Origin: a virus
Taxonomy: Duplodnaviria; Caudoviricetes
IMG/VR virus record: IMGVR_UViG_3300037780_000034
Span: 64,001 to 128,000 of that record
DNA length: 64,000 nucleotides
Reading direction: 5' to 3' (one strand)
Below are positions 19,092-27,289 of this stretch, in pieces (position 1 is the first letter of the stretch; every line of letters starts with the position of its first letter). The translations under genes and the position numbers were made by a program. Under the pieces are notes generated by a model. That model was not told the origin of the DNA and ran no database searches. It saw nothing but the letters and a program-made list of their open reading frames with translations.

Positions 19092-19682
19092 ATGAACTAT
19101 TGTTTTCCACAAATTCGCACAATTGATGATGTCCTTCCTTATATAAAAGGACGTGAAGAATTTGTTGTTGCTGAACGTGAGTTTGGCACAGTGATAAACT
19201 ATATGGTATCAATGCCAGACACGTTTGATATGAAGGGACCAGATGATTTAGGCGGGGCTATTCGTCGTGAATGTCGTGGAATTAAGTTCTATCCTGACGG
19301 AACTATTGCTTCTCGTGTTTTTCATAAATTTTTCAATATTGGAGAACGTGAAGAAACACAAATTCATAAAATTGATTTAACGTTACAACACACACTTATG
19401 GACAAACGTGATGGAAGTATGATACACCCGATGATGGTAAATGGGTATATTCGCTGGATGACAAAAATGGGTTTATCAGATGTAGCATTGCAAGCAGAAA
19501 AATATATCAATACCACAAACAACTATAATCCTTTTGCTGCTTGGTGTATTGAAAGCGGATTAACTCCAATTTTTGAATATACTGGTCCAAATAACCGAAT
19601 TGTTGTTTCTTATGAAAAAGAAGAATTAGTTCTACTTGCAGTTCGTGACAACATTACTGGAGAATATCTTGATGTTACTTGA
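19092..19682 (+). CDS. T4 Rnl1-type RNA ligase, N-terminal part
   Basis: RECRGIKF, FHKFFNIGE, KRDGSMI (motif I), FEYTGPNNRIV (III), LAVRDNITGEY (IIIa). Confidence 0.85.
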   Translation: MNYCFPQIRTIDDVLPYIKGREEFVVAEREFGTVINYMVSMPDTFDMKGPDDLGGAIRRECRGIKFYPDGTIASRVFHKFFNIGEREETQIHKIDLTLQHTLMDKRDGSMIHPMMVNGYIRWMTKMGLSDVALQAEKYINTTNNYNPFAAWCIESGLTPIFEYTGPNNRIVVSYEKEELVLLAVRDNITGEYLDVT

Positions 19683-20232
19683 TAAAATAAAAGAATATAA
19701 TATTCCTGTAGTAGAAACTCATCAAGCGTTTGATGACATTCATTCTCTTATAGAACATACAAAACATCTTAAAAATGCAGAAGGATTTATCATTTCGTTT
19801 CCTAATGGTCATAAACTTAAGATCAAAGCTGACGAATATGTAAGAATTCATAAAACAAAAGATATGATCCAGTTTGATCGTAACATAGTTGACTTGATCA
19901 TCAATGAAAATATTGATGATGTTATTCCTATGTTGCCAGAAACTGATGTAAATCGTATTCGTGATTTTGAAAAACGATTCTGGAAAGCATTTCTTGATAC
20001 TGAGAAAAAGTTGTATGGATTATATCGTGAAGCCGGAACATCGTATGATTATGATAAAAAACGTATTGCGACTGAATACATTCCGAAATATATAAAAGAC
20101 AAAACATATAGTTCATTTATATTCAGTCAAATAGATGGAAAAGATTTGCGCAATATGTTGCTAAAACATATTGAAAAAAACATAACAACTAACGTTAAAT
20201 GGGACCAATGCGCAAAATGGTTAGGAATGTAA
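19672..20232 (+). CDS. T4 Rnl1-type RNA ligase, C-terminal part
   Basis: AEGFII (motif IV), KLKIKADEY (V) plus helical C-domain; GGAGA 8 nt before ATG 19672; +1 frame relative to the N-part. Confidence 0.8.
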   Translation: MLLDKIKEYNIPVVETHQAFDDIHSLIEHTKHLKNAEGFIISFPNGHKLKIKADEYVRIHKTKDMIQFDRNIVDLIINENIDDVIPMLPETDVNRIRDFEKRFWKAFLDTEKKLYGLYREAGTSYDYDKKRIATEYIPKYIKDKTYSSFIFSQIDGKDLRNMLLKHIEKNITTNVKWDQCAKWLGM

Positions 20233-21208: not shown

Positions 21209-22636
21209 ATGTCAGCACTATTCAAAGCAGTAAACCGTGAAACTACAGTAACCGAAAATGGTATGGCAACACTTGAATCAAGTCTGGATTCAGTTGTTGA
21301 CCTTTTCTTTAAAATCGGTGCAAGCCGTGGAAAATTTGATGCACTAAAAAATACATTAAGTGCTGCATTTGCAACAGACCCTGAAATGACTGTTCGCGTT
21401 CTTCTTTGGTCTCGTGATGTTCGCGGCGGTGCCGGTGAACGAAAGCTATTCCGTGATGCTATACTATTTGGTTTCCAAATTGGTGCACTCACGAAAGAAC
21501 AAGGTGATCGCATTGTATCAAAAGTCCCAGAACTTGGGCGTTTTGATGATCTTTATGCATTCATCGGAACACCAAGTGAAAATGCAGCAATTGAACTTTT
21601 TGCTGGTGCACTTCGTTCTGGAAACGGTCTAGCTGCTAAGTGGAGTGATCGTAAAGGTATGAATGCAGTAAAAATGCGCAAAGCAATGGGTCTAACTCCA
21701 AAACAATATCGTAAGCTTGTTGTAAACAACACAAACGTTGTGGAACAACTTATGTGTGCAAAAAGCTGGAATTCTATTGAATTTGACAAGCTACCTAGTG
21801 TTGCTGCATCACGGTATCAAAAAGCTTTTTGGAAAAATGCAAACGAATCATATTCCAAATATGTAGAAAGCCTTAAAAAAGGTGAAGCAAAAATCAATGC
21901 TGGTGCGGTGTATCCATATGATATTGTCAAAAGCCTAAATTATGGCGATAAAGATGTTGCAAACCAACAGTGGAATTCACTTCCTGACTATATGGAAGGA
22001 ACAGAAAATCGCGGTATTCTACCTGTAGTTGATGTAAGTGCAAGTATGACTGTTCCAGCAGGAGGATATGGTTCAGGATCAAGTGTAACTTGTCTTGATG
22101 TTGCTGTGTCACTTGGACTTTACCTAAGTGAACGCAATCGTGGTATATTCAAAGATCAGTTTATTACTTTTAGTAATAATCCACAAATGCATAAACTTTC
22201 CGGAAATCTTTATCAACGGTATACACAACTTCGTCGTGCAGATTGGCAAATGTCAACTGACCTTGAAAAAGTATTCAAAGTTGTTCTTGATGCTGCAATC
22301 AATGGAAAGGTTGCTGAAAGTGATATGCCTGAAACAATTCTTATTCTTTCTGATATGCAATTTAATAGTGCAGTATCATCGCGTTATGGACGTAGCAACC
22401 CAACATCTTTTGAAATGATCAGTGATATATACAAAAATGCTGGTTATAAAATGCCAAACGTAGTTTACTGGAACATTAATTCAAAAAGTGGTGTTCCTGT
22501 TGAATTTGACCAAAGTGGAACGGCTCTTGTAAGCGGATTCTCGCCTTCAATTATGAAGTCTATAATTCGTGCAGAAAATGTCACTCCTGTTGATGTTATG
22601 AAGCAAACAATTATGGACAGTCGCTACGATTGGTAA
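21209..22636 (+). CDS. TROVE/vWA (Ro60-like, DUF2828-type) protein
   Basis: TENG, RDVRGGAGERK, GRFDDL, AAKW, and a vWA MIDAS segment VVDVSASM...ILSDMQF...YWN. Confidence 0.8.
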   Translation: MSALFKAVNRETTVTENGMATLESSLDSVVDLFFKIGASRGKFDALKNTLSAAFATDPEMTVRVLLWSRDVRGGAGERKLFRDAILFGFQIGALTKEQGDRIVSKVPELGRFDDLYAFIGTPSENAAIELFAGALRSGNGLAAKWSDRKGMNAVKMRKAMGLTPKQYRKLVVNNTNVVEQLMCAKSWNSIEFDKLPSVAASRYQKAFWKNANESYSKYVESLKKGEAKINAGAVYPYDIVKSLNYGDKDVANQQWNSLPDYMEGTENRGILPVVDVSASMTVPAGGYGSGSSVTCLDVAVSLGLYLSERNRGIFKDQFITFSNNPQMHKLSGNLYQRYTQLRRADWQMSTDLEKVFKVVLDAAINGKVAESDMPETILILSDMQFNSAVSSRYGRSNPTSFEMISDIYKNAGYKMPNVVYWNINSKSGVPVEFDQSGTALVSGFSPSIMKSIIRAENVTPVDVMKQTIMDSRYDW

Positions 22637-22654
22637 CATAATCTCTTTAAACTT

Positions 22655-22681
22655 AAAAAGAGCAGAAATGCTCTTTTTTTA
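22655..22681 (+). terminator. intrinsic terminator
   Basis: AAAAAGAGCA-GAAA-TGCTCTTTTT plus T run. Confidence 0.85.
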
Positions 22682-22703
22682 TTTCTCAAAAAATGAAAGT
22701 TAA

Positions 22704-23276
22704 ATGATAATAATGAGTGAAACACCTAAAATAAATACAGAATATAACTCAGAAAATTTAGAATCTTTTTTAAATAATTTTTATAAAGACCCAAGTGAAA
22801 AATATGTAGCATTATTTGAAAGTATGCATAACCTATGCAAGGAAAATGGATGGGGAGAACCCTTCTCTTATGCCAGAAGTAGAGAAATCCATATGGCTTG
22901 TATCCTTGGAAACACTCTTGCTGACACCTATAGCGGTGCAGATGCCTATGATGAAGATGGTCCTTGTGAATACAAATCTACCATTTCAAACAAGATAAAT
23001 GCAACATATAACGGAATATCAGTTCAACCTTCTTGGGATGAACAAATAAAATATTTAAAAGAAGAAAAAATAGGAAAATATAAAAATCACTACTATGCCA
23101 GATATAATGGCAGTTCTATAGAAGAAATATGGAAATTAACTGCTGATGACGTAATTAGTATTGTAGAAGAACCATTGAAAAAACAATATCATAATAAAAG
23201 TAATAAAAAAGACCCAAGATTGGGCATAAATATTAGTGAAGGAAAAATAAAACAATATGGCAAAAGAATCTTATGA
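22704..23276 (+). CDS. putative PD-(D/E)XK restriction-like endonuclease
   Basis: E...GADAYD...EYKST catalytic-like pattern; overlaps the MTase gene. Confidence 0.55.
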   Translation: MIIMSETPKINTEYNSENLESFLNNFYKDPSEKYVALFESMHNLCKENGWGEPFSYARSREIHMACILGNTLADTYSGADAYDEDGPCEYKSTISNKINATYNGISVQPSWDEQIKYLKEEKIGKYKNHYYARYNGSSIEEIWKLTADDVISIVEEPLKKQYHNKSNKKDPRLGINISEGKIKQYGKRIL

Positions 23277-24216
23277 AAGTAAACTTATAAACGGAGATTT
23301 TTTAAAAGAAATATATCAAGTAGAAGATAATATAGTAGACCTATTACTTACAGATTTGCCATATAACATAAGTGAAAAAGGAGCAAACCCAGAATGGTTT
23401 GTAACTGATGAAAAAACTGGCGAAAAAATAAACAAAAACGGAATTCATAATCAACAGTTTGATGATAAATTTGAAGAAAAATGGGATTCTTTGTCCGAAG
23501 ACGATTTCATAAAAAATCTACAAATATGGGCAAATACGTGGTATCCAAAACTAAGAAATGGTGGTTCTTTTGCTATATTCATTAGTGATCGTTATATTTC
23601 GCATTTATGGTCAGCTATGGAAAAGGCTGGATTTGAACCAAAACGAATATGGACTTGGAAAAAGCCAGCAGCAGTTCCTTTTAATAGAAAAGTGAATCCA
23701 GTAAGCGGTTGTGAATATATTTTGTGGGGAATAAAACCAAACGGTAAAAGAACATTTAATTCAGATTGTCCACAAGAAAATATAGTAGCAAGATATAGTA
23801 TGGCTGATAAATTAAGTTCTATACTATATAAAAAATTAAAAGATGATACAGAAATGAATTTAGATAAATGTTTCTTAGAAGCATTAGTTGATGCCAAAAA
23901 AGTTTATGAAAATTTAAAAAGAACAAACGATATAGAACATTGTGTAATTCCAAACACAATAACATATAGTGGCGGTCTAGGAAAAGATAAAATCCATCCT
24001 ACTCAAAAGCCAGAAGAAGTATTAGAATATTTTATAGAATTATTGACCAACAAAAACGATATAGTATTAGATACTTTTGCTGGAAGCGGAAGCACAGGTA
24101 TGGCGTGTAAAAAATTAGATAGAAAATATATTTTAATAGAAAAAGACAATAATATGTTTAAAAAAATGAGCGCCAGATTTGAAGAAAATCCACTATTAAA
24201 GAATTTATTTGAATAA
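23257..24216 (+). CDS. beta-class N6A/N4C DNA methyltransferase
   Basis: TDLPYN (motif IV) N-terminal; HPTQKP and VLDTFAGSGSTG (motif I) C-terminal. Confidence 0.9.
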   Translation: MAKESYESKLINGDFLKEIYQVEDNIVDLLLTDLPYNISEKGANPEWFVTDEKTGEKINKNGIHNQQFDDKFEEKWDSLSEDDFIKNLQIWANTWYPKLRNGGSFAIFISDRYISHLWSAMEKAGFEPKRIWTWKKPAAVPFNRKVNPVSGCEYILWGIKPNGKRTFNSDCPQENIVARYSMADKLSSILYKKLKDDTEMNLDKCFLEALVDAKKVYENLKRTNDIEHCVIPNTITYSGGLGKDKIHPTQKPEEVLEYFIELLTNKNDIVLDTFAGSGSTGMACKKLDRKYILIEKDNNMFKKMSARFEENPLLKNLFE

Positions 24217-24266
24217 ACTATACACTTAAATAATAAATATCTTTATAGTAAAATATGGAGATATTT

Positions 24267-24767
24267 ATGAAAACATTTAAAGAATATTTAAAAGAACAAG
24301 AATTACCAGAAGAAATAAAATATGTTGCAATAATTTGCGATCAATCTACCCAAACAAAACTCATAAATTATTGTATTAAAAATAACTTTAATTTAGAAAA
24401 ATCATATGATGACGAACAGCAATCACCAGAAGATTTTGAATTTCACGTTACTATATTTTTTACAAATTCTCTGCATAAGATTGAAAATAAAGAAGAACAG
24501 TTAAATGATGTAATTTCAGCTAATCCAATTAAATTAGAAGTATTTGGTCAAAATAAAGATGTTCCTGTATTAAAAGTTGAAGGCGATGGAATATCAAAGT
24601 TGAGAAAATACTTTGAAAAAACATATAATATGACTGATGAGTGGCCAGACTTTAAACCACATATATCATTGAGTTATGATAGAAAACCATATAACGTTGA
24701 CGAAATAGAACTACCAGATTTCCCCATATACTTTGATAAGTTAGTAATAAGAAGCGGGGAAGAATAA
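24267..24767 (+). CDS. 2H phosphodiesterase, Acb1/T4 gp57B-like
   Basis: two HxT/S motifs (FHVTIFF, KPHISLSY) with Acb1-like spacing; GGAG SD before ATG 24267; AATAAATA at 24232-24239. Confidence 0.75.
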   Translation: MKTFKEYLKEQELPEEIKYVAIICDQSTQTKLINYCIKNNFNLEKSYDDEQQSPEDFEFHVTIFFTNSLHKIENKEEQLNDVISANPIKLEVFGQNKDVPVLKVEGDGISKLRKYFEKTYNMTDEWPDFKPHISLSYDRKPYNVDEIELPDFPIYFDKLVIRSGEE

Positions 24768-25301
24768 ATGTCAAAATTAGGAAAAACAGAATATCCAAGA
24801 AGTAAAAATGAATTTTATCCAACACCAATTTCTGCATTAGAACCATTAGTTTTACATTTAGAACAGAATATTACATATTGTGAACCTTGTGCAGGAGCAA
24901 ACGATTTAGTAAAAAATCTTGCAATTTTAAGACCTGATATTAAATGTAGTATATCATTTGACATTGATCCAAGGGATAATAATATTATAAAAAAATCTGC
25001 AACAGACATAGAAAAAAGTGAAATAGATAATATAGATTATTTTATAACAAATCCTCCATTTAAGTGGGAAATGTTTGATCCAATAACAACTCATTTAATT
25101 TCATTAAAACCTACTTGGTTATTAATTCCTTCAGATTTTATGCATAATAAAAGAATGGGACCATATATGAAAAAATGCTCCAAGGTGGTGTCTGTTGGAA
25201 GAGTAAAATGGTTTTCTGATAGTAAAGCCACAAGCACTGATAATTTTTGTTGGTATCTTTTTCAAAATGAATTGACAGAAACACGTTTCTACGGAAGATA
25301 A
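24768..25301 (+). CDS. small phage N6-adenine DNA methyltransferase
   Basis: NEFYPTP, EPCAGAN (SAM-binding), ITNPPF. Confidence 0.82.
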   Translation: MSKLGKTEYPRSKNEFYPTPISALEPLVLHLEQNITYCEPCAGANDLVKNLAILRPDIKCSISFDIDPRDNNIIKKSATDIEKSEIDNIDYFITNPPFKWEMFDPITTHLISLKPTWLLIPSDFMHNKRMGPYMKKCSKVVSVGRVKWFSDSKATSTDNFCWYLFQNELTETRFYGR

Positions 25302-25304
25302 CAG

Positions 25305-25333
25305 TTGATACGAATCGTTTGATATGCTATGGT
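25305..25333 (+). promoter_or_regulatory. sigma70-type promoter with GANTC
   Basis: TTGATA-17nt-TATGGT; GAATC at 25312-25316. Confidence 0.6.
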
Positions 25334-25810
25334 ATTGAAAAGTATACTTTCAACTACCAAGGAATTCATATGATGAGTCTGAAAAATAAAATATTATGCA
25401 ATATTGGACAACACAGATATGTATCTGTGTTAAGAACATATGATATATTCACAACACGATGGAAAGATACTGGTGAAACTACATATTGGCATGTTCATTT
25501 TTTAAAATGTAAACATTGTGGAACACGAAAGTTTGTCACTAATTATGATAGTCTAATCATACACCCTGGGATTGATTATGTAAAACACAAATGGATTGAA
25601 AACAATATTATTCCAGATTATGTTAAAAATCCAGAAAAATATTCTAAATCAAATAAACAATCTCCATCATCAAAGGAACCAGAAAATTCATTTACAAAAG
25701 ATAACAAAATAAACAAATTATTGATTAAAGCACTTGATACAAGTAGTGAGAACGAAGCAGAAAACTGTTTTAAAATGGCAAGAAAGGCATACCAAAATGC
25801 TAAAGGTTAA
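25319..25810 (+). CDS. hypothetical protein with a C-terminal DUF2786-like helix pair
   Basis: KINKLLIKALDTSSENEAENCFKMARK; internal CKHC; true start probably near 25370. Confidence 0.5.
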   Translation: MICYGIEKYTFNYQGIHMMSLKNKILCNIGQHRYVSVLRTYDIFTTRWKDTGETTYWHVHFLKCKHCGTRKFVTNYDSLIIHPGIDYVKHKWIENNIIPDYVKNPEKYSKSNKQSPSSKEPENSFTKDNKINKLLIKALDTSSENEAENCFKMARKAYQNAKG

Positions 25811-26294
25811 GTTGCATAAATCTTGGAAAACCTATTTCAATGACAGTGATATGGATAAGATACGCGATGCTATTAAATATTCTATAAAATATCACAAAAT
25901 TGGCGAAATAAATCATACTGTTGAATTTTATTTTGTAGATGAAATTACTTCTTCAAGAAGTCTAGGTATGAATGAATTTACGGCTGGACAATTTCATTTT
26001 GGATCAGATACCAAAAGTCATATTAAAATAAAAAGTAATCGTAATATAGTAGGAATAATTATTACTATTTTTCACGAAATTACACATTTAAAACAATACT
26101 TGAAAAAAGAATTGATCAATACAGAATTTGGAATAGTTTGGAAAGGCAATACTGTTCCAAATACTGTTGATTACTATGACAAACCATACGAAGTAGATGC
26201 ACGTTCTCACGAAATAAAAATATATATAAAATGGATGCTGACAAGAGATTTCAATTTTGTTAGAAATCTGTTTAATAAAATATGGTTTAAATAA
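25794..26294 (+). CDS. zincin-like metallopeptidase
   Basis: IFHEITHLKQY and PYEVDAR. Confidence 0.7.
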   Translation, partial: KMLKVKLHKSWKTYFNDSDMDKIRDAIKYSIKYHKIGEINHTVEFYFVDEITSSRSLGMNEFTAGQFHFGSDTKSHIKIKSNRNIVGIIITIFHEITHLKQYLKKELINTEFGIVWKGNTVPNTVDYYDKPYEVDARSHEIKIYIKWMLTRDFNFVRNLFNKIWFK

Positions 26295-27289
26295 TATGCT
26301 TGAAAGAATTTTTTTAGCACTACTAATAGGTTTTTTATTAGGAATTTACTTAACTCCTAAATCTTCTTACGCTATTTGTGAAAACAATTACAAATCAAAA
26401 TCACAAATACTTGAGTGTGTATGGAACTTGGAAAATGAATAGCACAATATCAAAGCTTATAACTTTGTCTATAAGTAGCTGCACGTGCTTAACCAAAAGC
26501 CCGTTACCATCATACCACAGCATAGATTGTAAATATCGGATAACATTAGAAGTAATATCAGAAGTTGAAAACTTAATTGCAGTGAACGAAACACTAACAA
26601 AACAACTGTTGTTGGTAACAAATGAGAATAAACAAAATGTGCAACCATAATTTATACTGGGAATATAGCGATAATAGTCATATATCGGTCATATACAATA
26701 ATAAAAATTTTGCAAATTTTGAAATTTTAAATGATCAAGATTTAACTTATTTTAAAAAATGGTTTAATAACTTTTCTTCCGATATAAAAGAAAATCGAAT
26801 TAATTCTATAGATATATTTAAAAATTTACCAGATGGCAAGGTTATTCCTTAATGATCAAACGAATTAAAAAATATATAGAACAAGTCAAAGAAAAAAGAT
26901 TTCTAAAAAAACACAATGTAAAAAGTTGGGAGCAATATCATAGGGTATATGATCCTGATATTAATAAAAATGAAATGATAGTTGAAAACTATTATCACGG
27001 ATATGACACTGTGATTATAATGTCAAAATATGAAAATGTAGGAGACATATTTGGAATATATCCTAAAGTTGCCAATATAGAAAAATGGTGCAAAGAAAAT
27101 GCTAATTACAAATATAGAATTGATCTTAGTCCAATATTTTATGCAAATGGAAAGCTTTCTTTCATTGACAATTGGGGAGTTGAAGAAATAATATTGGCAT
27201 TTAAAAATAACGAAGATTTTTTATTATTCATGTTAACATATGACGGAATTGAACTAAAAGGAAGAACCGATGTGGTCAAAATTAATTGA
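26257..27289 (+). CDS. four small hypothetical proteins (26257-26442, 26378-26650, 26622-26852, 26852-27289)
   Basis: tiled short ORFs; exact starts uncertain. Confidence 0.4.

Follow-up and report, generated by a model that had tools for sequence, protein, structure and literature searches.

An Acb1-family phosphodiesterase gene behind a T4-type late-promoter motif in a pond jumbo phage, and its resemblance to capsid-targeted proteins

In bacteriophage T4 the internal proteins IPI, IPII and IPIII begin with a capsid-targeting sequence (CTS), whose removal by the gp21 prohead protease is credited to Mullaney and Black 1996, as cited in PMC12991175. T4 also encodes Acb1 (57B), a 2H phosphodiesterase. 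Acb1 enzymes have four nucleobase-stacking aromatics and a C-terminal lid (residues 145-152, with Trp147 over the ligand), and the T4 activity is soluble and appears about 15 min into infection, coincident with the late onset of CBASS, an antiphage defence whose signals are cyclic oligonucleotides (PMC9117128). One preprint reports that the gp21 protease activates CBASS, starting at 14 min (PMC12991175), and another reports triggering by the prohead protease/scaffold (10.1101/2023.05.21.541620). In addition, 2H domains fused to MuF/portal proteins have been predicted to undergo packaging, with a possible role in degrading nucleotides of host defence (Iyer, Burroughs, Anand, de Souza and Aravind 2017; PMC5512222, section 20). 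Here we describe an Acb1-family gene in a 64,000-nt stretch (bases 64001-128000, called the window; positions refer to it unless marked as genome) of a 318-kb (317,722-bp) IMG/VR record of 31% G+C. The source is a giant T4-superfamily jumbo phage, uncultured, from a pond. The product of the gene begins MKTFKEYLKE, and a first-pass annotation had taken this start for a T4-type CTS and proposed that the enzyme travels in the phage head.

We give about an even chance to the reading that this is a late, cytoplasmic Acb1, whose N-terminal helix is an inherited trait of its clade that resembles a CTS. The Acb1-family enzyme would be made late from a T4-type late promoter and would act in the infected cytoplasm, cutting cyclic oligonucleotide alarm signals when capsid assembly triggers CBASS-type defences. 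The MKTFKEYLKE helix would come from clade inheritance, and its likeness to a CTS would be due to chance. Cyclic oligonucleotide substrates, late timing and a cytoplasmic site of action are the most likely assignments. From the first-pass annotation, the Acb1 family, the T4-like phage, the late-type promoter and the CTS look-alike were retained; delivery in the head is unproven, at close to even odds. The gene and its signals are the following.

24232..24239, plus strand, AATAAATA box resembling a T4-type late promoter, 27 nt 5' of the ATG (direct reading)
24244..24249, plus strand, TATAGT hexamer resembling a -10 element, directly behind the late box (in the relative L069 it reads TATAAT)
24257..24260, plus strand, GGAG ribosome-binding site, 6 nt 5' of the ATG, kept in L069
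24267..24767, plus strand, Acb1-family 2H phosphodiesterase gene (translation, Pfam, PHROG, AlphaFold2 and structural match)
24267..24296, plus strand, leader, codons 1-10 (MKTFKEYLKE), amphipathic, similar to the T4 CTS, with L-x-E at its end
24297..24311, plus strand, linker, codons 11-15 (QELPE), between the leader and the Acb1 core
24444..24452, plus strand, catalytic motif 1, H60-V-T62 (HxT), aligning with HTT of FBB1 Acb1
24660..24668, plus strand, catalytic motif 2, H132-I-S134 (HxS), aligning with PHITLSY of T4 and FBB1 Acb1

The open reading frame (ORF) at 24267-24767 (+) has 166 codons and a stop codon at 24765-24767. The ORF and its MKTFKEYLKE start, as annotated in the first pass, were confirmed by the ATG at 24267, the GGAG and the translation. 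The interval 24232-24767, given there for the whole feature, begins exactly with the AATAAATA box and closes with the stop codon. A second in-frame ATG, lying four codons further upstream (24255, MEIF...), was considered and is an unlikely start, since it is without a Shine-Dalgarno sequence and its letters are the AT preceding the GGAG. Megablast of window positions 22000-27000 against cultured phages gave no match.

The window protein is a member of the Acb1 family. It matches the Pfam Acb1 profile (PF23474) with 45.2 bits against a gathering score of 27, residues 41-157 covering profile positions 18-130, and PHROG phrog_755 with an E value of 1.6e-23. Exhaustive searching with HMMER yielded 321 relatives, of which 161 had E <1e-10, and the family alignment of 102 representatives (clusters at 50% identity) was also the input for AlphaFold2. 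The resulting model has a mean predicted local distance difference test (pLDDT) of 96.8. Its top structural match is the Acb1 of phage FBB1 (7t26; VIA-align Z 15.4, root-mean-square deviation 2.4 A over 135 residues, model residues 16-165), followed by the phosphodiesterase of Burkholderia phage BCSR5 (Z 13.8), while LigT and plant CPDase reach Z of about 10-11. With the profile score above its cut-off, a fold closest to FBB1 Acb1 and both 2H motifs present, the name Acb1-like 2H phosphodiesterase is justified. A separate loci search with a 6-row alignment gave 12 loci, mostly on short contigs.

H60 and H132 are invariant across the 102 homologues. In the second motif Ser134 replaces Thr, as in most of the clade, the catalytic tetrad of T4 being H44, T46, H113 and T115. 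By alignment, three of the four nucleobase-stacking aromatics of Acb1 have counterparts in the window protein (Y19 for Y12, F93 for W74 and W126 for F107). Y19 lies in strand 1, and W126 is placed six residues ahead of H132, as F107 is ahead of H113. The C-terminal lid is absent, the chain stopping five residues past the last strand (...VIRSGEE), and no Trp was found in the C-terminal tail of any of the 94 clade members examined. A role of the N-terminal helix as a substitute for the lid was considered and rejected, since members with and without the extension share short Trp-free tails. The protein is thus a real Acb1-family member from a lid-less branch, with a putative activity on cyclic nucleotides that is suggested by sequence and model.

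The missing lid also bears on a different assignment, in which the protein is a 2',3'-cyclic phosphodiesterase that heals RNA ends, or another RNA-directed 2H enzyme of the extensive RNA/tRNA repair or conflict toolkit of this phage. We consider this improbable. It agrees with the loss in this clade of the Trp lid that closes over cyclic GMP-AMP in FBB1 and T4 Acb1 (PMC9117128), with the label 'RNA ligase' that PHROG and GenBank give to the family, and with two nearby genes, one for an Rnl1-type RNA ligase 4.5 kb upstream, the other, 3.5 kb downstream, for a Thg1-like tRNA-His guanylyltransferase. The T4 Pnkp-type phosphatase domain (PF08645), also counted in its favour, was not found in the 85%-complete record. 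However, the profiles of the LigT/CPDase type stay under their cut-offs (2_5_RNA_ligase2, PF13563, 22.6 against 27; CPDase, PF07823, 16.9 against 21) while Acb1 passes, LigT_PEase (PF02834) gave no match to the window protein in the Pfam profile search, and the structural match to Acb1 exceeds those to LigT and CPDase by 4-5 Z units. In the more distant relatives examined, the gene sits beside a PAAR spike gene or a giant gene of the PARP-like type and not beside an RNA ligase, and phage solo 2H domains of this kind are not associated with RNA ligases (Iyer et al. 2017, PMC5512222, section 20). For the closest relative, L069, the 4-kb flank stops short of the position of the ligase.

The box upstream of the gene belongs to a motif with a strong positional preference. 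The plus strand of the whole genome carries 113 copies of NATAAATA, and 53 of them lie 10-40 nt upstream of called plus-strand starts, where about 3.5 would be expected from the fraction of the genome at such positions; most of these copies are 17-33 nt away. The genes behind NATAAATA include the large terminase, the portal, three 'virion structural' genes, three tail-fibre-like genes and two homing endonucleases. With this positional excess, and with structural genes among those that follow it, the motif behaves as a T4-type late promoter. The AATAAATA copy matches this constrained motif, so that its earlier description as a late-type box stands. In L069 the spacer has otherwise diverged, and the conserved islands are AATAATAAATA, then TATA(G/A)T and GGAG. 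The box is present, well placed and conserved, and read-through from the upstream genes is possible. Most likely, a T4-type late promoter drives at least some of the transcription of the Acb1 gene, as the motif predicts. TATAGT might serve as a second element of the promoter, or it might lie in the region where the transcript starts. A scan for sigma-70 promoters in 22600-25900 did no better than shuffles (26 against 21.4 +/- 4.6). A search for sequencing runs that contain this DNA gave three DNA runs, from ponds or metagenomes, and none of RNA.

The late box had also been taken as a sign of packaging. In that alternative MKTFKEYLKE would be a working CTS: the enzyme, made late, would enter the prohead with the scaffold core, be trimmed after Glu10 by the gp21-type protease and enter the next cell together with the DNA, and cutting of immune cyclic nucleotides would then begin as soon as that infection starts. 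We place this proposal, including the trimming and the early cutting, somewhat short of an even chance. A late promoter needs no packaging as its explanation, because T4 Acb1 activity is late too and CBASS is reportedly triggered by the prohead protease or scaffold; the step from late box to packaging was therefore not sustained. T4 Acb1, whose start is related, was obtained as a soluble activity that does not appear until about 15 min into infection (PMC9117128), and so late an onset speaks against injection of the enzyme in quantity in T4. The Acb1 of phage G is absent from the phage G proteomic data (PMC12484599).

The case for packaging begins with the leader itself. In the T4 record IPII and IPIII begin MKTYQEFIAE/A (a slash marks the cleavage position) and IPI begins MKTFKEFTSTTTPVSTITE/A, so that the T4 leader cited in the first-pass annotation (MKTYQEFIAE, cleaved after Glu) was correct; the IPI leader has the form MKTFKEF...ITE/A. 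Among 464 predicted ORFs, the leader of the window protein has the best score against the T4 CTS (BLOSUM62 33, next best 21). Several observations weigh against a merely inherited helix and against our preferred reading in general. The leader is the closest match to the T4 CTS in the genome, with 5/10 identities to IPII/IPIII and 6/7 to IPI. It ends in L8-K9-E10, which is the LxE motif of the gp21 protease, although the next residue is Gln11 and not Ala. The nearest sub-clade, although only 40-50% identical overall, retains [LI]-x-E at residues 8-10, unexpectedly for a Glu that faces the solvent, and a variable linker of 5-9 residues follows it there. The extension is dispensable for the fold, being absent in 23/102 representatives, as would suit an accessory signal; the model aligns with the FBB1 Acb1 structure from residue 16 onward, which leaves the leader outside the solved core. 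The substrates are ones that we infer, for a clade that lacks the C-terminal Trp lid of T4 and FBB1 Acb1. Finally, three Vibrio phages described below carry an Acb1 with an unmistakable appended leader.

The distribution of the motif points in the other direction. An N-terminal extension of at least 10 aa was found in 71/102 representatives, and 45 of the 71 have aromatic-x-x-aromatic in it, while a hydrophobic-x-E site before strand 1 is present in only 12 representatives. Clade starts include MKTLKEFTAK, MLGFSEFLSV and MISFKDYLKE, and weaker versions are seen in the T4-type Acb1 of Acinetobacter, Vibrio, RB43-like and RB49-like phages (MKLSEV, MKLSTFLE, MKSFLEV, MTPFRES), while T4 Acb1 itself shows the segment weakly (MMEFKDF). 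Because the aromatic-x-x-aromatic start is clade-wide and mostly lacks a cleavage site, we regard the leader as a family trait and not as a member of the tag pool of this phage. The survey of homologues for CTS prefixes suggested in the first pass therefore gave a divided answer: an F-x-x-F/Y segment occurs in about two thirds of the clade, mostly without the LxE site. Likewise, the claim that the protein carries a T4-type CTS is right in that this is the top look-alike of the 464 ORFs, but it is not a tag added to one enzyme. Head genes were not detected on the contigs of the distant motif-bearing homologues P0055, P0085 and P0065, and these contigs cannot show whether the motif occurs beyond T4-like phages.

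The model also disfavours a flexible tag. AlphaFold2 places residues 4-10 in a helix, with a pLDDT of about 92 for residues 1-10, whereas in a control, a tagged late protein (genome 298853, eight homologues), exactly residues 1-10 fall below pLDDT 50 (mean 33); the contrast comes from very unequal alignments (102 rows against 8) and uninspected coordinates, and is suggestive only, which is a further caution for our preferred reading. A modelled complex of the prohead protease with Acb1 scored 0.00, which is evidence neither way.

In T4, 57B begins MMEFKDFSTG and its gene directly adjoins ipI (L006:3592-4411). The starts of 57B and IPI are alike (MMEFKDFSTG, MKTFKEFTST), and this resemblance hints at a shared origin of the IPI leader and the Acb1 start. 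The starts of T4 gp67 and gp68 show no resemblance to the leader.

The machinery required for head loading is present in this phage. A T4-type head module was found at genome 255.9-261.8 kb as a portal-to-capsid gene block, comprising portal, 71-aa protein, acidic 293-aa protein, Peptidase_S77 protease, scaffold and gp23-type capsid. The prohead protease (genome 258870-259505) is of the gp21 type (PF03420, 73 bits) and the capsid protein of the gp23 type (PF07068, 288 bits), which supports the T4-like character of the phage. The complete module, with portal, small core protein, protease, scaffold and capsid, favours packaging, as do the sites of the LxE/S and IxE/A types near the N-termini of the capsid (LME/S) and of the protease (IVTE/A), and the start of the small head-module protein, MNIIKEYYEAE. 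Statistics on N-termini agree with this. [LI]xE[ASG] in the first 16 residues is enriched in genes with late boxes, 8/52 against 7/262 of the others (p = 0.0009). The heptad Phi-x-E-Phi-Phi-x-E, which the Acb1 leader fits, occurs at four N-termini against 0.4 expected, a 10-fold excess, and a late box is present for three of these four.

About a dozen proteins of this phage that are otherwise unrelated, mostly behind NATAAATA, start M-[KR]-Phi-x-E-I-Phi-x-E followed by Ala/Ser. Tag-like starts in this genome include MKINEIINE, MHIKEIITE/S, MRIGQILKE/A, MKIKQITE/A and MRKYLNIVE/A, and proteins of the dozen were located at genome 19568, 123070 (window 59070), 134690, 151569, 153476, 195164, 298853, 302571 and 304530. 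Proteins with the M-[KR]-Phi-x-E-I-Phi-x-E start are candidates for head-loaded cargo. Compared with these tags of the form M-[KR]-aliphatic-x-E-I, mostly followed by A/S, Acb1 has an extra Thr3, aromatic instead of aliphatic residues, and Gln instead of Ala/Ser after the Glu, and this difference speaks against packaging. Its leader fits M-[KR]-Phi-x-E-Phi-Phi-x-E only if one extra residue is allowed, and a six-frame search of the genome found no second leader of the MKTF type.

The clearest leaders on Acb1 were found in the Vibrio phages pv27 (OR413349), Va1 (MK387337) and phiTY18 (MW451250), all three cultured. Their Acb1 genes are located as follows.

pv27, L042:2411-2935 (record 121790-122314)
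Va1, L078:211-744
phiTY18, L079

These enzymes are canonical and lid-bearing (130 bits, profile positions 1-142 covering residues 28-173). Their appended leader of 27 aa, M[KN]PKSFREHLNQTSTDFITE/AP, ends in ITE/A, lies wholly outside the profile and resembles the IPI leader of T4. Its ATG is served by a GGAG, and it has been kept through synonymous changes. Its FKEYL core is identical to that of the window protein. The F-[KR]-E-[YFH]-L start occurs on exactly three further pv27 ORFs: a 76-aa protein whose gene immediately precedes that of the prohead protease (MNFKEYLNKNDNLDE/A), MKFKEYLNELSHTNDDSINE/A and MKQTFREFLEE/S. All cultured phages with homologues of the window protein, including these three, have Peptidase_S77. 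From its sequence, the Vibrio leader looks like a true IPI-type propeptide on Acb1. An Acb1 behind an IPI-like leader in S77-positive phages, with that leader common to three other pv27 ORFs, speaks for packaging.

Acb1 domains are also joined to head proteins. A 672-aa fusion of ChaB, Acb1 (118 bits), DUF5824 and Peptidase_S78_2 (an XkdF-type head protease) was found in two IMG/VR loci (L016:1201-3216 and L017). Among the 150 best family matches there are five fusions to DUF2213/phrog_530 'head maturation protease' (P0109, P0129, P0140, P0131 and P0149), and L018 is a portal with a 2H tail. The solved portal gp3 of cyanophage Pam3 (8hds_A) has a C-terminal Acb1-like 2H domain at residues ~485-599 (HVTIAYS...HISLS, E 2.3e-5); the paper on the structure says nothing of a phosphodiesterase domain (PMC9942802). 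These fusions favour packaging, but another reading is that they couple the enzyme to the trigger of CBASS and do not serve injection. In a broader proposal, Acb1-family enzymes would be routinely carried in heads by more than one route, through short cleavable CTS-type leaders in the T4 superfamily, as in this phage and its relatives and most clearly in the three Vibrio phages, and through portal or head-protease fusions elsewhere, the F-x-E-F/Y start and the adjacency to ipI marking Acb1 as an old member of the internal proteins. We find this rather unlikely.

The delivery mode had been presented as not known to be described for Acb1. This holds for a CTS leader on Acb1, since in a literature search that did not cover all journals no description was found of a CTS on Acb1 or of Acb1 in virions, but head delivery of 2H enzymes was predicted in 2017 (PMC5512222). 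Head delivery is thus an already published prediction, and the leader route for a stand-alone Acb1, not found in print, is unproven.

The upstream neighbour of the Acb1 gene is listed here as context only.

23257..24216, plus strand, N6/N4 DNA methylase (Pfam PF01555, E 7e-40)

The same gene order around the methylase and Acb1 is seen in the relative L069, which is 75% identical. The neighbours are nucleic-acid enzymes and not structural genes: the DNA methylase, the Rnl1-like RNA ligase, the Thg1-like enzyme and a DUF2828/DUF7788 protein. The gene had been described as lying among early genes. The neighbours are indeed non-structural and may be early genes; the upstream methylase gene likewise has a CATAAATA box. 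An ORF at 24768-25301 begins one base past the Acb1 stop and has an NPPF motif typical of adenine methyltransferases, with no Pfam family match; methylase-like genes are therefore present on both sides of Acb1 (PF01555 upstream, the NPPF ORF downstream). The Rnl1-type region at 19092-20232 consists of two overlapping ORFs (19092-19682 and 19636-20232), and the overlap may reflect a frameshift, a split gene or a wrong choice of start.

Other neighbourhoods were seen in relatives. Among phiM7-like phages, and also in several metagenomic relatives, the start of the Acb1-like gene falls within a few bases of the point where a PAAR (gp5.4-like) spike-tip gene stops (L001:3648-4495 in phiM7; L070:3693-4492; L008-L013). 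This suggests that the Acb1-like gene shares a transcript with a late structural gene. Two distant phages have the Acb1-like gene adjoining a giant gene (~1400-1500 aa) of the PARP/ADP-ribosyltransferase type (L041:10001-14652 and, in Ochrobactrum phage vB_OspM_OC, L043:2480-5432).

Internal proteins of the T4 type are known to act against GmrSD (IPI*) and on RNA polymerase (Alt). If the leader is a head-loading tag, destruction of immune signals would join these functions, an anti-CBASS nuclease would arrive ready-made with the DNA, and cyclic-nucleotide defences could be disarmed ahead of all phage gene expression. Should the leader be no more than a structural helix, the gene would encode an ordinary late-expressed Acb1 homologue of a large lid-less sub-family. 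The three cultured Vibrio phages with the clearer leader make the packaging question cheaply answerable.

Compared with described systems, the window protein is closest to the Acb1 of the Erwinia phage FBB1 (PDB 7T26/7T27) and of T4 (gp57B), sharing with them the 2H fold, two His-x-Thr/Ser motifs, the aromatics and encoding by the T4 superfamily. It differs by an identity of only ~23% over the core, HxS in place of HxT, the lack of the Trp147 lid and a 15-aa N-terminal extension. Unlike in T4, the gene is not beside the 57A chaperone gene, while late timing is likely, as for T4 Acb1. With the Vibrio Acb1 it shares the family, a T4-superfamily phage with S77 and an N-terminal F-[KR]-E-[YH]-L, but its leader has 10 aa and not 27, its cut site is less typical and it has no lid. 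The fusions of Iyer et al. belong to the same superfamily and have the same proposed purpose, a ready-made head-carried enzyme that destroys defence nucleotides; there the enzyme is covalently attached to head proteins, whereas the stand-alone window enzyme would need a short cleavable tag, and both are predictions. With the CTS of IPI, IPII and IPIII of T4 the leader has in common the pattern M-K-T-aromatic-x-E-aromatic-aliphatic-x-E, the LxE end, a T4-type protease and scaffold and a late-type promoter. In T4 the leader is common to several internal proteins and is followed by Ala, while in the window, read from its sequence alone, the MKTF form is found only on Acb1, appears to be inherited with the family, is followed by Gln and is predicted by AlphaFold2 to be an ordered helix.

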